A stretch of 64,000 bases of DNA from Bacteroidota bacterium (GCA_003175935.1 PSRI01000064.1:10831-74830); one strand, 5' to 3'. Counted from the stretch's first letter, positions 31,536 to 38,414 are shown. The notes: generated by a model from the sequence alone, not told the origin. Numbers and translations are program-made.

Positions 31536-34500
31536 TTATTGAATGATTTTTTGCAAAGCACTTCTGGATTCTTTGACAGTTTTCACGCCGTCTTTGGTTT
31601 CAATCTTCGTTCGAACCAGCACACCTTCTTCATCGTATTCATAAAAGCTGGCGTAATTATTGGCATCGAGCTCGCTGACCAGCCGAAGATTTACAGGATC
31701 ATACACATAGCTTTTGATACTTGCATTGAAAGGATGCATGCGTATATCGTCAAAGTATACCTGCGTCGTACTGGTATTGACCAGGTATAAACTCATCGAG
31801 CTGGTCGTTGACCATACTTTAAAAGTGTCTTCATATCGCTGCCAGCCATCGATGATCGGACCCACAGGATTCAAAATCCGCGCAGGCTGACCTCCCACAA
31901 ATTGGAGCTGAACCTGGTTATGGGAATAGGTATATTCTTTACAAGGAATACCATTGACAGGATCACCACAGTTTTCGTGTACCCAGGCACTAAAAACCAT
32001 TTTCTTATTCGCCGGTACTGAAAATAGGCCATTGAGCATCGAAGCATCTGAAGACATGGCCTTTGTGAAACTGCAGCCGCCAACCTTAGTGAGATTTTTA
32101 TAATCTGGCGTAGTCACTCCGGGACAAGACCAGGCATAAGTATTATTTGTGCCTGTTGCGCCGTTATTTGTTGCATTATATAGTTCAGTTCCACTGAAGC
32201 TGATCAAATACACGCCCGCACACAAATACTGGTTATAAGAGGCCTGCGTATAATTAAAGGCGTCCTGGGAGAAGGAGTAATTATTGATCACATTTCCGAG
32301 CAAATCAGTAATCGTTATTGCCAGTCCGTTGCTGTGCTGATAAACAGTAACGCCAGACAGATTATAAGCACTGGACATGCTCGTATTGAAAGTGTATGTA
32401 TTGGCTGTCGTCACGTTCATATAGAAAGAACCGGAAATTGTATAATAATGCATACGCGTATTGCTGCTGGAATAAATCGTATCCAGCGGAAGAATACCCA
32501 CAGTGAAGCCACCGTTTGTTGAGGAAAATGTAGGTGTGCCCTGGTTACCTGCGGGTACCACGTGTGGTACCGTTGTAGCAAAAGCATAATTGCCGCCGAG
32601 GGTACTTAGATTTTGAATGGTATCTTTTTGCAGAGTCAGCGTCGGAACTATTGAATTATCAGGTTGCGGTTGCACAGGTATAGGTAAGATGGCCGTAGTT
32701 CCGGAATTGACTGCCAACACATATTTGCCTGTATGTGCGGCAAAATTGCTGCTGCTGGTATTGATAATAGAACAATTGCTCGCAGTTGCAAAATTGAGAT
32801 GGCGATTCCTGAAATTATATGTCGTTGGATAAAGACTTTCACCAAATCCATAATCTTCAAATCCATCTGCAAACATTTCGCTATAGCGTGCATTGTTAGC
32901 TATCGCTACCGGTATGGATTTGTAATATCCATATTCAGCAGAAGTGTACACGCCCCTTGGATCTACTGTTTCCAATTCAAGGCTTTTGCCATTAACACGA
33001 TTGAGGCGACTGTTCCAAACCCATTGCGTGCTTGTGGAATCAGGAACCAGATTGCTCGACGCATTGAAATCCCAGTACAGTTTGAAATTATTTAGATAAC
33101 CGTTGGCAGCAATATTTGTATTTGAAGTCGAATCATATTCTTTGCGGCTATCGTAAAAGACCATGCTGCGATAAGCTTTAAAATTTCCTATCAACCCTTT
33201 GAGGTAAGGATTGATACTTTTTTCCATATAACCGAGACTGTCGGGAACTTCGGAAATCACGCAGGCATTCACCACCTGCCTTAGATGATTAAAGACATCA
33301 TTATCCGTGAACCATTTTTCTTTATACTCTGTAGCGGACGCATTGATTACTTTGCTGGAAGAATTAAAAACGAGTTTACCCGTTGCCAGAGGATTGTCGG
33401 CGCCAGTAACTGTTTCCGTTTTTTGATCCAGCATATTTCGGTGCCCGCTGCGAATGATCCGGAAATTCACTGCGCTCATTGTAAAAGGTGTTCCTTTCTC
33501 ATCGAGGAAAATAAAATCCGGCGTAGTGATAAGAGAAGTGTTGTTTTTATTTTTATCAAAAGCCCAGATTAGATTTTTCATACCGGAAGCAATCTGTGCA
33601 TCACAACCCGTTCCGGTTGTCGCTGAACTCACCAGGATTTCATCGCCACTTTCAAAAACAGAAAAATCAAATCCTGCAGTAGTGATTTTTCCATCACTGA
33701 AAGTGATCCCTGTATAAGTTGCATTTATATTTTTATAGGCCAGTCCCATTCCGCCATATGCCCAGTATGCCGGATAGCCCGTTGAATATACAGGCTGGTT
33801 GAATTCATTATTGCTCCGCGAAACCAACACCTCGCCGGTATAAGAATCATATGCCAGGTTTTTAGTTGACACCTGGCTGCCCTTATCAATGACAACAACA
33901 CTGTCTAACACACCATGATAATTTATTACTTTGGTTGTAGTCACTGCACGATAAATATTTTCAGCCGTTCCTGATACAGGCCAGATCGTTGGCACAGGAA
34001 TGGGAAAAACGAAATAGAAAATATCTACCTGTCCCTGTATTTCAAGGCTGGTGCTCTTTACAGAAAATTCCCGGGTATCTGTCATCAGATCGATGTCAAT
34101 ACCCATATTGCCAGAGTATGAAGTGCCACTATTGTCTTTGCCAACAAAAGTGAATTTGTCATTGAGACCGTTAGTTCCGGTATTGCGATAGAAATTTTCG
34201 GTATAACTGATGCGACTCAGCGAATCATTTTCTGCATAGGAAGATTGGGATTTCATTTTGCCATGCATATCATTTGTGGCAACGAGAAAACCCTGTGATT
34301 GCGCTTTATAATCGTAGGAATATTTGTTGAAGAATGCAAGCGTCGAAGCCTGGTGAAACTCTTTGACACTACCTGCATCAAACGGAGTATAATTTGTGTA
34401 CACCGGAAAATCCCTGGCGGTATAATATTCGGTAACCTGTTTGCCAATACCTGACCTTGTTTTTTTGGCGGTAGAAGTATCCATCTTAATCGCAGTCACG

Positions 34501-37500: not shown

Positions 37501-38414
37501 TAAGACGCCTGTTCATAAATTTGTAGTGCTTTTATCCCACTTCTGGAATTATATCCCGTGGATAAACCCACACCAAAAGAGGTGGAATTATTTTTGAAAT
37601 TCGCACTGCCTGTAAGAGATACTCCAGCGGAAAAAGAAGTACCACTCCTTGAGTTAATATCTACACCTAAATTGACACCCATACTGGCGGGTGTTTTTTC
37701 ACTGCCAGCTATATTGCCAATTTTATATGCTGCATTTCCTCTCAAAGAAAGATCCAGCGATGGTCCGAGATAATTATTGAAGGCCACACCCAACTCTGCT
37801 TTGATCGGTGCTTTAATTCCTAATAGTTCCAAATCTGCACCAATGCCCAGACCCCAGGTTTTATTGGGTTTCATGATCTGCATTTGCGTCAATGTATCCT
37901 GTCCGTTAAAATCATCAGGTACCCCGCGCATGTTGCGACTGATATTACCAGGATTCAGATTCCAGCCAAGGCCCACCCAACTGGCTTCCTGCTCCATGGT
38001 GATGCCTCCTTCATAATAAATGTTGATGGGATAACCGCCAACATCCAATAAGGGAATATTGTAGCTGAAATCTCCTGTAAATAAGTTCACCATATTATTT
38101 GTGCCCACCGGTTTGAAAGACGCCATCTCGGGCTGTCCGGGACCACCAATATGGTTGAAAGTATTTTTGGTTGGTTTTGGCATAGTGCTTCCGGCCCATG
38201 CATGCTGGCTATTACTTCCAAACAAATTGCCAGAAGGTTCACTACCGGTACCGGATAACCGATAATCATGTCTCCGGTTGTCATTGCCTGCATAGAAGGT
38301 TTGCTTTAACATATTCCCTTTGCTTACACCTGGAAATATGAGCGACGTGTAAAAGATGGTCGCCAGCAGGCAGGCAATCTTTTGCGAATGGCGATTAGAT
38401 AACTGTGCAATCAT
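31536..38414 (-). CDS. giant secreted protein with TcB/SpvB-N-like motif and terminal YD repeats (locus A)
   Basis: 2292-aa ORF. Residues ~100-170 read FTGDFSYNIPLLDVGGYPINIYYEGGITMEQEASWVGLGWNLNPGNISRNMRGVPDDF, resembling the SpvB/TcaC N-terminal pattern (IPL..LSLSY.S..GNG.FGLGW.L....I.R.T..G.P.Y). GKLTLQSIYFTYNG...YSFSY resembles the TcB mid region. The C-terminus YVYDPVNLRLVSELDANNYASFYEYDEEGVLVRT is YD-repeat-like. Confidence 0.85.
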   Translation of the reverse strand: MIAQLSNRHSQKIACLLATIFYTSLIFPGVSKGNMLKQTFYAGNDNRRHDYRLSGTGSEPSGNLFGSNSQHAWAGSTMPKPTKNTFNHIGGPGQPEMASFKPVGTNNMVNLFTGDFSYNIPLLDVGGYPINIYYEGGITMEQEASWVGLGWNLNPGNISRNMRGVPDDFNGQDTLTQMQIMKPNKTWGLGIGADLELLGIKAPIKAELGVAFNNYLGPSLDLSLRGNAAYKIGNIAGSEKTPASMGVNLGVDINSRSGTSFSAGVSLTGSANFKNNSTSFGVGLSTGYNSRSGIKALQIYEQASYNYKQAKSGAENKSNDKHLTSYSLNENLYSTTISFAKPSYTPSLRMPLTNTAWSGHFQLGLGSFGVAADVEAEVYGQKSEVAPADTMLKKPMVGYLYYQNAASNPGWVMDFTRFNDREVTPNTPVISIPQYSYDVFTIQGEGTGGSIRAFRNDLGYVRDNITTSKDKNLSLGGDIDPPGHYGGNFNTVKTPSAIGEWGKGNKLRNAIQFTNANGTFENVYFRNPGENCVIDSNRFIQVGGTDLVRFVLGGSNNSPTIEPKLQSYSNSLKPGIITDLSTKKVITERNKRSQVVNFLTAAETQLVGLDKYIRSYDNVTFLDVVADTLIYEKIPRVDGIIRKAHHISQINVTENNGRRYVYGIPVYNLTQTDFTFSVDNAYSQIPDKVLLNPALNYTNSRSALLTDGSQRDGYVQVTTTPPYAHSFLLSGILSPDYVDVTGDGISDDDIGDAVKFNYTRIKNGSDRGHYWRTPLSGPDSANFHAGSRSEVKDDKAMISYGERESWYLASVESKTMIALFYVSRRSDGKGTVGPAGGIYGGDFFVKKLDSIALFSKPDLKANGLAKAKAIKTVHFVYTYQLCQGTPDDTSSISGSKGKLTLQSIYFTYNGKTRAFKNNYSFSYLSAGVENLTDNPIYASGSSDRWGTYKSASLNPGGLKNNDYPYTIQDTAQATTVNQNASAWMLKKIILPSGGQLEMTYEADDYAFVQNRRASEMMKVVGFGTSNVYSASSDRLYPITNTSGTENDYVFIQVPVACNNATDVFNLYLQGMTQLSFKIWVLMPKGPEFIPCYANFSAGNYGVDATNHNVIWVKMDRIAGKSPLSVTTLEYLRQQLPGQAFPGYDVSGEPALKQVGDMLLAMLNSLRDAFTDPINAFRKDGKAMHTDLTKCFARLNDPFGRKKGGGYRVKTVTLKDNWNTMTGQFTASYGQKYDYTTTESFNGTQRQISSGVASYEPSIGGEENPFQSIIQVQDYLPAGPTSFGAVEMPAMDAFFPAPLVGYSKVTVTAIKMDTSTAKKTRSGIGKQVTEYYTARDFPVYTNYTPFDAGSVKEFHQASTLAFFNKYSYDYKAQSQGFLVATNDMHGKMKSQSSYAENDSLSRISYTENFYRNTGTNGLNDKFTFVGKDNSGTSYSGNMGIDIDLMTDTREFSVKSTSLEIQGQVDIFYFVFPIPVPTIWPVSGTAENIYRAVTTTKVINYHGVLDSVVVIDKGSQVSTKNLAYDSYTGEVLVSRSNNEFNQPVYSTGYPAYWAYGGMGLAYKNINATYTGITFSDGKITTAGFDFSVFESGDEILVSSATTGTGCDAQIASGMKNLIWAFDKNKNNTSLITTPDFIFLDEKGTPFTMSAVNFRIIRSGHRNMLDQKTETVTGADNPLATGKLVFNSSSKVINASATEYKEKWFTDNDVFNHLRQVVNACVISEVPDSLGYMEKSINPYLKGLIGNFKAYRSMVFYDSRKEYDSTSNTNIAANGYLNNFKLYWDFNASSNLVPDSTSTQWVWNSRLNRVNGKSLELETVDPRGVYTSAEYGYYKSIPVAIANNARYSEMFADGFEDYGFGESLYPTTYNFRNRHLNFATASNCSIINTSSSNFAAHTGKYVLAVNSGTTAILPIPVQPQPDNSIVPTLTLQKDTIQNLSTLGGNYAFATTVPHVVPAGNQGTPTFSSTNGGFTVGILPLDTIYSSSNTRMHYYTISGSFYMNVTTANTYTFNTSMSSAYNLSGVTVYQHSNGLAITITDLLGNVINNYSFSQDAFNYTQASYNQYLCAGVYLISFSGTELYNATNNGATGTNNTYAWSCPGVTTPDYKNLTKVGGCSFTKAMSSDASMLNGLFSVPANKKMVFSAWVHENCGDPVNGIPCKEYTYSHNQVQLQFVGGQPARILNPVGPIIDGWQRYEDTFKVWSTTSSMSLYLVNTSTTQVYFDDIRMHPFNASIKSYVYDPVNLRLVSELDANNYASFYEYDEEGVLVRTKIETKDGVKTVKESRSALQKIIQ

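Follow-up and report, generated by a model that had tools for sequence, protein, structure and literature searches.

Two related families of predicted TcB-like proteins encoded upstream of DUF6443-Rhs toxins in Bacteroidota

Do Bacteroidota possess their own version of the two-part cocoon that Tc toxins build from a TcB and a TcC subunit? This question is raised by a 64-kb stretch of DNA from a Bacteroidota bacterium (GCA_003175935.1, PSRI01000064.1:10831-74830; hereafter the window), in which two loci, A and B, each carry the gene of a large protein upstream of the gene of an Rhs toxin. An earlier note, made from the sequence alone, had likened these two proteins, here called A and B, to TcB subunits and had proposed that each forms a split cocoon with its Rhs neighbor. 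We found that A and B represent two related, very large and almost wholly Bacteroidota families which, judged by sequence profiles and predicted structure, are remote homologues of TcB. These families are predicted to share an architecture in which an SpvB-type N-terminus is followed by a wide RHS-type half-shell and a jelly-roll resembling a carbohydrate-binding module (CBM), and which ends in two canonical YD repeats. For B, both the fold and the profile comparison support the TcB-like reading; for A, the support comes from its homology to B.

Both open reading frames (ORFs) proved to be real, and the three elements that the earlier note had seen in both proteins were all recovered, the coordinates of the BLASTP blocks agreeing with that note. 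The first element, A residues 109-168 against B residues 55-120, shows 42% identity (BLASTP E 8e-9; profile versus sequence, prob 95.7%). No part of the A family is better conserved (78% mean identity), and of 83 B-family loci, all 82 that allowed extraction of this stretch contained it. The second element, with the pattern L.L.S....G....Y.F.Y, lies at about residues 897-923 of A and 401-427 of B, within a confident profile-profile segment (A881-1005 / B389-508). The third consists of the C-terminal YD repeats, where A 2222-2270 and B 1060-1107 show 31% identity (BLASTP E 5e-5). The B-family profile matched the repeats of Tse5, RhsA, and VgrG-Rhs in its last ~60 positions only (E 6e-6 to 8e-4), and Pfam RHS_repeat matched 19 of 25 B-family members; by these matches, the C-terminal repeats are true YD/RHS repeats. 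When a profile of 32 A-type sequences from metagenome loci was aligned with one of 25 B-type sequences, the two families matched over A106-2282 / B52-1119 (hhalign prob 98.5%, E 2.4e-15), and by this alignment the homology of A and B spans their whole length. No Pfam or NCBIfam model matches either window protein, and named sources label both families 'hypothetical' or 'YD repeat-containing'.

The fold of B was predicted with AlphaFold2 (AF2) from 25 family members. The model (predicted local distance difference test, pLDDT, 80.6; predicted TM-score, pTM, 0.83) consists nearly entirely of long beta-hairpins. In a Foldseek search of the PDB, TcB subunits and TcB-TcC fusions led the matches, and TcB chains filled most of the top 12. 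The best match was YenB (5kis_A, E 2.4e-19, TM-score on the query, TMq, 0.41), and TcdB2-TccC3 (6sup, TMq 0.42), 9c4k_P (TMq 0.41), 4igl_A, and 6h6e_F completed a top set whose E values lay between 2e-19 and 1e-16 and whose TMq reached 0.42 at most. On the other hand, the closed type VI secretion system (T6SS) Rhs cocoons (RhsA, Tse5, RhsP, and Tse15) and the teneurins were scored as homologous but superposed poorly, with TMq of ~0.1. Mosquito SGS1 was also among the matches. Because the B model superposes best on TcB, the whole of B, and not its tip alone, is predicted to form an RHS-type shell as wide in its geometry as the TcB half-cocoon. The earlier note had placed YD repeats at the extreme C-terminus; the visible consensus is indeed found there only, but in the B model most of the chain belongs to a shell of RHS-type beta-hairpins. 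Domain boundaries in the models were drawn from secondary structure and alignments.

The N-terminus of the B family was compared with six genuine SpvB/TcaC N-terminal domains, those of Salmonella SpvB and of proteins from Mycetohabitans, Serratia, Vibrio, Burkholderia, and Streptomyces. Over 190 columns, hhalign gave prob 91.5%, E 8.7e-7, and a score of 56, whereas 20 column-shuffled alignments and one reversed alignment of SpvB scored at most 23, with E of at least 0.046. Three stretches were paired: 'GEKF..NP.TG..S.S.PI' with 'LGKY.D.PVSY.TG.P.ISIPI', 'P.L.L.Y.S..GNGPFG.GW.L....I.R.T..G.P.Y' with 'LPISLSYHASG...ASWVGLGW.LN.GG.I.R.V.G.PDE', and, further on, 'W.i....d..G....Y.Y' with 'SW.LTRI.YPN..D.V.F.Y'. 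By this comparison, the SpvB-type N-terminal domain of B appears to be remote but real. The likeness to the SpvB/TcaC motif suggested in the earlier note is thus supported for B, but not for A alone, since the A family reaches SpvB only via B.

Several results weigh against a kinship with TcB. SpvB was matched by A neither as a single sequence (E 0.059) nor as a family profile (E 0.21), neither value being significant. The Pfam SpvB model (PF03534) had no match in either window protein and matched only one of 25 B-family members, at E 0.005. Among PDB sequences, the full-length B-family profile matched by its terminal YD repeats only and did not see TcB, and an N-terminal profile of 23 B-family sequences and both window proteins did not find TcB either. 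Since methods that compare a hidden Markov model (HMM) with sequences are blind to the SpvB likeness, we consider the homology between B and SpvB to be remote. When the B and A profiles were aligned with three full-length TcBs, they matched in the N-terminal domain only, and weakly (E 0.0016). The Pfam families FG-GAP and TcdB_toxin_midN/midC had no match in either window protein, nor in 25 members of the B family and 4 of the A family, whereas these families together with SpvB were found in all three bona fide TcB/BC proteins used as a control. The FG-GAP propeller and the TcdB_toxin_mid region of TcB gate the cocoon and dock on TcA. The secondary structure of the B model shows long hairpins without a run of short propeller blades, and B is ~330 aa shorter than TcB, which is about the size of the propeller. 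Finally, Foldseek with an AF2 model of A residues 1-1200 gave nothing below E 1e-3 and no TcB match. Predicted alone, B was TcB-like (E ~2e-19), with an RHS-shell-like fold and no propeller-like run of short strands, but the N-terminal half of A was not. Weighing these points together with the fold and the SpvB profile match, we consider a TcB-type ancestry of the B family to be very probable.

The downstream partners were described as Rhs proteins in the earlier note, and this identification was confirmed. Both contain the Rhs-associated core (Rhs_assc_core, TIGR03696, E ~1e-11) and DUF6443, and in each a DPxGL-type site precedes the variable tip at the end; by this domain content they are genuine Rhs toxins. 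The association of the TcB-like proteins with such partners extends over both families. A word-indexed search gave 1998 matches for the B family, which occupies 492 loci in GTDB contigs with one genome per species, nearly all of them from Bacteroidota (Chitinophagales, Sphingobacteriales, Cytophagales, Saprospiraceae, and Flavobacterium). The A family comprises 5014 representative clusters at E <=1e-3, mostly of 2000-2900 aa, and 51 metagenome loci. Where enough downstream sequence was available, a DUF6443/Rhs ORF followed the B-type gene in 38 of 42 loci and the A-type gene in 26 of 27. This adjacency persists at ~30% identity, as in one relative whose Rhs partner has an Amidase_2 tip. Moreover, in at least nine loci from several Bacteroidota lineages, the two proteins are fused in a single ORF in the order TcB-like region, DUF6443, Rhs shell, and Rhs core, the complete fusion ORFs encoding 2183-2308 aa; in one of them, DUF6443 follows the last YD repeat at a distance of only ~12 aa. 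These natural fusions are the strongest evidence for the partnership, and in the manner of a Rosetta stone they indicate that both proteins act as one structure. Synteny and fusions together strongly suggest that the TcB-like protein and the Rhs protein share one BC-like cocoon, which we regard as probable.

On the other side stands the length of the partner shells. From DUF6443 to the end of the core, the Rhs partners span 850-1340 aa, which is near the ~1000 aa of self-closing T6SS Rhs cocoons and exceeds the TcC chains of 660-690 aa. Because of this length, a self-sufficient Rhs cocoon is a live alternative: the Rhs protein would close its own complete cocoon in the style of a T6SS effector, and the TcB-like protein would be a separate accessory, for example an anchor at the surface, a carrier that binds receptors or acts as an adhesin, or a factor for export across the outer membrane on which the cocoon docks. 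Such a role would suit the CBM-like jelly-roll of the TcB-like proteins, the GBD, CBM, or PA14 inserts of some members, the barrel-like insertion of A, and the co-encoded outer-membrane-like proteins described below. However, the B model is much closer to the open, wide TcB half-shell than to the closed cocoons (TMq 0.41 versus ~0.1), the terminal YD repeats run straight into DUF6443 in the natural fusions, and ~1000 aa of shell would be excessive for an adaptor. We therefore regard the self-closing cocoon as possible but doubtful. A profile of the Rhs partners matched SGS4/SGS1, RhsA, YenC2, TccC2, and TLP among PDB sequences, in every case via the core region only; such a profile fails to discriminate between TcC-like and T6SS-like partners.

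The coordinates of both loci are collected in Table 1.

Table 1. Features of loci A and B in the 64-kb window, each locus in gene order, with domain positions in residues of the protein concerned
Feature	Coordinates	Strand	Basis or conservation
Locus A, 794-aa exported protein, coiled coil and beta-rich C-terminal part ending ...YFKTF	39548-41932	-	kept in 21 of 26 A loci
Locus A, 364-aa exported protein upstream of the A-type gene	38443-39537	-	immediately upstream in 24 of 29 loci; signal peptide by eye
Locus A, A-type TcB-like protein, 2292 aa	31536-38414	-	ORF; homology to B family over A106-2282
A, SpvB-type N-terminal motif, aa 109-168	37911-38090	-	BLASTP, profile match, family conservation
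A, specific insertion, aa 170-397, 11-12 long antiparallel strands	37224-37907	-	AF2 secondary structure, Foldseek
A, C-terminal module, aa ~2136-2292, end of CBM-like jelly-roll and two YD repeats	31539-32009	-	hhalign A2136-2281 / B1004-1118, BLASTP E 5e-5
Locus A, 294-aa exported protein between A-type gene and Rhs A	30677-31561	-	signal peptide by eye
Locus A, Rhs toxin A, 3003 aa: signal peptide, Ig-like repeats, DUF6443 844-939, Cys-rich region, RHS repeats, Rhs core 2636-2719, toxin	21511-30522	-	
Gene right after Rhs A, 426 aa: lipoprotein-like signal, S26 signal-peptidase-like domain, three predicted membrane helices	20128-21408	-	
Locus B, 482-aa exported protein, ~300-aa coiled coil and ~150-aa beta-rich C-terminus ending ...VGYNF	60275-61723	-	before B-type genes in 25 of 64 loci
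Locus B, B-type TcB-like protein, 1126 aa from TTG	56888-60268	-	AF2, Foldseek, SpvB profile-profile
B, SpvB-type N-terminal motif, aa 55-120	59909-60106	-	BLASTP, family loci, SpvB profile-profile match
B, terminal YD repeats, aa ~1060-1126	56891-57091	-	matches to Tse5, RhsA, VgrG-Rhs repeats; Pfam RHS_repeat
Locus B, Rhs toxin B, 2263 aa: signal peptide, ~7 Ig-like repeats, DUF6443 916-1043, RHS shell, Rhs core 1974-2040, C-terminal toxin	50041-56832	-	
Locus B, candidate immunity protein, 172 aa, no signal peptide, 2 nt after Rhs B	49520-50038	-	position; no Pfam match
Orphan Rhs C-terminal fragment, 739 aa, different toxin tip	45322-47541	-	55% identity to Rhs B aa 1606-2047; low GC at 44-50 kb
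Candidate immunity ORF after the orphan fragment, 157 aa	44814-45287	-	
Reliable colinear blocks, A / B (aa)	108-168 / 54-120; 724-1003 / 257-506; 1787-1911 / 899-999; 2136-2281 / 1004-1118		

The A-type protein is composed of a signal peptide or anchor, the SpvB-like motif, large insertions, a shell, the jelly-roll domain, and the terminal YD repeats, its RHS half-shell being predicted from homology to B. The twofold difference in size between the two proteins had been called unexplained; it is now accounted for by insertions in A. The extra ~1170 aa are spread over several sites: a longer leader, ~420 aa net within the SpvB-like domain (aa ~169-723), a middle shell about twice as long (aa ~1004-1786), and a poorly conserved insert of ~220 aa (aa ~1912-2135) in the jelly-roll before the last YD repeats, at a position where other family members carry GBD_T9SS_assoc, CBM_4_9, or PA14 modules. 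The start of B can also be placed at an ATG at 60250, which gives 1120 aa, the length of the matching database protein P0001.

The insertion within the SpvB-like domain of A has a structure of its own. In the model of residues 1-1200 (pLDDT 70.5, pTM 0.66), residues 170-397 form 11-12 long antiparallel strands, and those between 184 and 289 show hydrophobic residues alternating with polar residues or glycine, several with dyad amphipathicity. Among the top 50 Foldseek neighbors of this model, outer-membrane beta-barrels prevailed with few exceptions (FadL, OmpT/Pla, TamA, autotransporter beta-domains, LptD, and BamA), although at weak E values of 2.6e-3 to 0.08. The model suggests that residues 170-397 form an outer-membrane beta-barrel within the SpvB-like domain, and this segment could act as a membrane anchor or pore module within a TcB-like protein.

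All genes of both cassettes lie on the minus strand and are spaced by 2-155 nt or overlap, an operon-like arrangement. By eye, every protein of the two cassettes except the candidate immunity protein starts with a signal peptide of the Sec type, in which the cleavage site is mostly A-Q. The A-type genes keep constant company. Besides the upstream neighbors listed in Table 1, a homologue of the 294-aa protein lies directly downstream of A-type genes in 23 of 43 loci, and in most other A loci the first Rhs match begins ~700-1000 nt further on, which leaves room for a gene of similar size; judged by this gene order, the A cassette is conserved as a unit of five genes. The 794-aa protein is likely an outer-membrane protein, and the 482-aa protein of locus B is likely a small outer-membrane barrel. 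Both end in an aromatic residue (Phe), by which they resemble outer-membrane barrels, and they look like barrels on coiled-coil stalks. When searched as single sequences and as family profiles against the PDB and Pfam, both returned coiled-coil noise only, and one member of the 482-aa family matched DUF481 at E 0.003. The two proteins show no detectable kinship with each other or with the 364-aa and 294-aa proteins.

The Rhs proteins have features of their own. In both, the N-terminal ~850-900 aa contain about seven tandem immunoglobulin-like (Ig-like) modules of ~95 aa (54100-56750 and 28000-30400) with the signature 'G.Y.YQWQ.S.D...W..I.GAT...Y.P..L...T.YRR' and a weak match to Big_2. Neither the fused variants nor many of the shorter partners carry these repeats, which therefore look like an optional extension of surface or adhesive type. 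In Rhs A, a Cys-rich region of ~1000 aa (aa ~940-1970) lies between DUF6443 and the recognizable RHS repeats; Rhs B contains nothing comparable, and Pfam does not match the region. In at least eight B-type loci of other genomes, an exported protein of ~175-195 aa is encoded between the TcB-like and Rhs genes, which by eye resembles the glutathione peroxidase/thioredoxin fold ('GKK.LLVN.AS.S...FPSN.FG.EP') with Ser at the expected catalytic Cys.

GC content falls over the cassettes, to 0.31-0.34 between 44 and 50 kb, and the rest of the window consists of polysaccharide-degradation and housekeeping genes. A cluster for the breakdown of plant polysaccharides at 1509-13391 (glycoside hydrolase families GH9, GH10, and GH43, an esterase, and a sugar transporter of the major facilitator superfamily) fits the lifestyle of soil or rhizosphere Chitinophagaceae, and in a genome scan the best relatives were metagenome-assembled genomes (MAGs) of Chitinophagaceae, with Agriterribacter at 69% identity. 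Two further family loci lie ~28 kb apart on one Mucilaginibacter MAG chromosome (OZ255719.1), which like the window thus holds several TcB-like/Rhs cassettes. The presence of such paralogous cassettes in one genome suggests arsenals of paralogous systems.

How do these cassettes compare with known systems? On the one hand, the window proteins resemble TcB (YenB, TcdB2, TcaC, and SepB) in their probable, remote SpvB-type N-terminus, in the wide RHS-type half-shell as best structural match, in the position of the gene directly upstream of a toxin-bearing Rhs-core protein, and in the occurrence of natural B-C fusions in both groups, the Burkholderia protein of our comparison set being a TcB-TcC (BC) fusion. 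On the other hand, they differ from TcB not only in the missing propeller-region families and the shorter length of B, but also in their Sec signal peptides, in the CBM-like jelly-roll before the last YD repeats, in the large insertions of A, one of them barrel-like, in a YD consensus that is degenerate except at the C-terminus, and in their host phylum, Bacteroidota. To our knowledge, Tc subunits have no signal peptide. Real Tc loci carry a neuraminidase-like TcA gene directly upstream of TcB, whereas no ORF of TcA size or type was found in the 64-kb window. Since both the propeller region and TcA were not detected, these systems are not Tc toxins in the strict sense. The partners, for their part, share with TcC and Rhs polymorphic toxins the RHS repeats, the core with a DPxGL-type site, the variable toxin, a small immunity-like ORF, and orphan tips, but differ from TcC in their signal peptide, their Ig-like arrays, DUF6443 at the start, and the longer shell. 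They differ from T6SS Rhs proteins in being without PAAR, VgrG, or chaperone genes; no Pfam match to PAAR or VgrG was found in either Rhs protein or in the neighboring ORFs scanned, and no T6SS genes were found among the window ORFs scanned. Nor does a type IX secretion system (T9SS) signal appear: a T9SS sorting domain (TIGR04183 / TIGR04131) was matched only by a Por_Secre_tail segment inside A that stays below threshold (aa 2023-2074, E 0.048, 13.7 bits versus a cutoff of 23), and the C-termini of the cassette proteins are YD repeats or toxin tips, not T9SS sorting domains. Teneurins, bacterial teneurin-like proteins, and mosquito SGS1 have the YD-shell superfold in common with the window proteins, but their structural matches are weaker, with a TM of ~0.1 for teneurins.

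Related toxins have been described in the same phylum. A 'TcdB/TcaC' class of polymorphic toxins with SpvB, an integrin-like propeller, and RHS was reported to include Bacteroidetes (Zhang et al. 2012, PMC3482391). Within the Flavobacteriales, SpvB-TcdB-Rhs fusions of the canonical kind, likewise with their tips displaced, are known from Ca. Ornithobacterium hominis (PMC6421346), and similar fusions from Apibacter, where a link to the T9SS was proposed and left open (PMC8125069). These fused toxins are like the window systems in phylum, in having no TcA, in their presumed interbacterial use, and in their displaced tips. However, they are single polypeptides with SpvB/TcdB signatures detectable in databases, whereas the window families are invisible to Pfam and NCBIfam, are usually encoded by two genes, and are accompanied by further conserved genes of exported proteins. 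A survey of Tc toxins does not mention Bacteroidetes (PMC7861908). In the literature that we searched, there was no description of the split, Pfam-invisible families or of their accessory genes, and DUF6443 was not mentioned.

Against whom would such toxins be directed? The earlier note counted immunity genes as present. Candidates are indeed found after Rhs B (172 aa) and after the orphan Rhs tip (157 aa), but a small immunity-type ORF is not evident downstream of Rhs A, and this counts against an interbacterial target. The orphan fragment is 55% identical to Rhs B residues 1606-2047 (E 2e-162), has a charged, low-complexity tip of its own, and forms with the ORF behind it a typical displaced-tip array (44814-47541). 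Based on the 172-aa ORF 2 nt after Rhs B, the orphan tip with its own small ORF, and the drop in GC content, we consider interbacterial antagonism to be the likely purpose. The alternative, that these are Tc-like toxins aimed at eukaryotes such as protists, nematodes, insects, or fungi, draws on the classically anti-eukaryotic use of TcB relatives, on mosquito SGS1 among the Foldseek matches, on the eukaryotic grazers that soil Bacteroidota meet, and on the lack of an obvious immunity gene after Rhs A. However, it leaves unexplained the small cytoplasmic ORF right behind Rhs B, the orphan tip with a second small ORF, which is the usual layout of interbacterial polymorphic toxins, and the relative with a peptidoglycan amidase tip, and no TcA was found; we consider a eukaryotic target to be unlikely. 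Least of all would we credit the disfavored idea that the SpvB/TcB likeness is convergent or due to chance, and that A and B are unrelated beta-rich surface proteins ending in YD repeats: it could appeal to the lack of any Pfam/NCBIfam match and to the HMM-versus-sequence searches that miss TcB, but two independent lines agree (Foldseek E ~1e-19 and a profile-profile match far above shuffled controls) and the pairing with Rhs-core proteins in the genome matches that of TcB with TcC.

We propose that the cassettes are a Bacteroidota version of the BC (TcB-TcC) capsule, and we infer their export route and interbacterial target. The TcB-like and Rhs proteins would be exported separately by Sec or, in the fusion variants, as one chain. 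The terminal YD hairpins of the TcB-like protein would then pair with the DUF6443 / first-YD region of the adjacent Rhs, so that both form one BC-like cocoon, which would be plugged by the Rhs core and hold the C-terminal polymorphic toxin, while the cytoplasmic immunity protein would protect siblings. Because no TcA was found and the propeller-region domains were undetected, display or release and entry into the target must use other parts. Candidates for outer-membrane passage, anchoring, and target recognition are the 794-aa and 482-aa proteins, the barrel-like insertion of A, the jelly-roll/CBM-like module, and the Ig-like arrays. More tentatively, the cassettes may constitute a self-contained, Sec-dependent delivery of Rhs toxins in Bacteroidota, in which a propeller-less TcB-like half-shell and a DUF6443-Rhs protein form a capsule in the envelope that is displayed or released by outer-membrane beta-barrel elements. 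In the A type, this barrel would be part of the TcB-like protein itself, whereas in the B type it would come from the coiled-coil/barrel protein. As a whole, we hold this delivery scheme to be rather speculative.

In summary, Rhs and Tc cocoons are a general means of packaging toxic proteins, and their exit and their entry into target cells are understood only for the TcA- and T6SS-dependent cases. Our study indicates that large families unlabeled by Pfam and NCBIfam are predicted TcB relatives that accompany DUF6443-Rhs toxins in Bacteroidota from soil, freshwater, and marine habitats, by which DUF6443-type Rhs toxins would gain a partner. The BC architecture would thereby be extended to a Sec-exported context in which no TcA was found and the propeller-region domains were undetected, so that the delivery mechanism must differ, and candidate new envelope components are indicated. 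Culturable carriers include Niastella yeongjuensis DSM 17621, Hydrotalea sandarakina DSM 23241, Pedobacter yonginense, and Algoriphagus yeomjeoni. If the self-contained Sec-dependent delivery is true, these Bacteroidota would possess a new export and delivery route for encapsulated toxins that is independent of TcA, T6SS, and T9SS.

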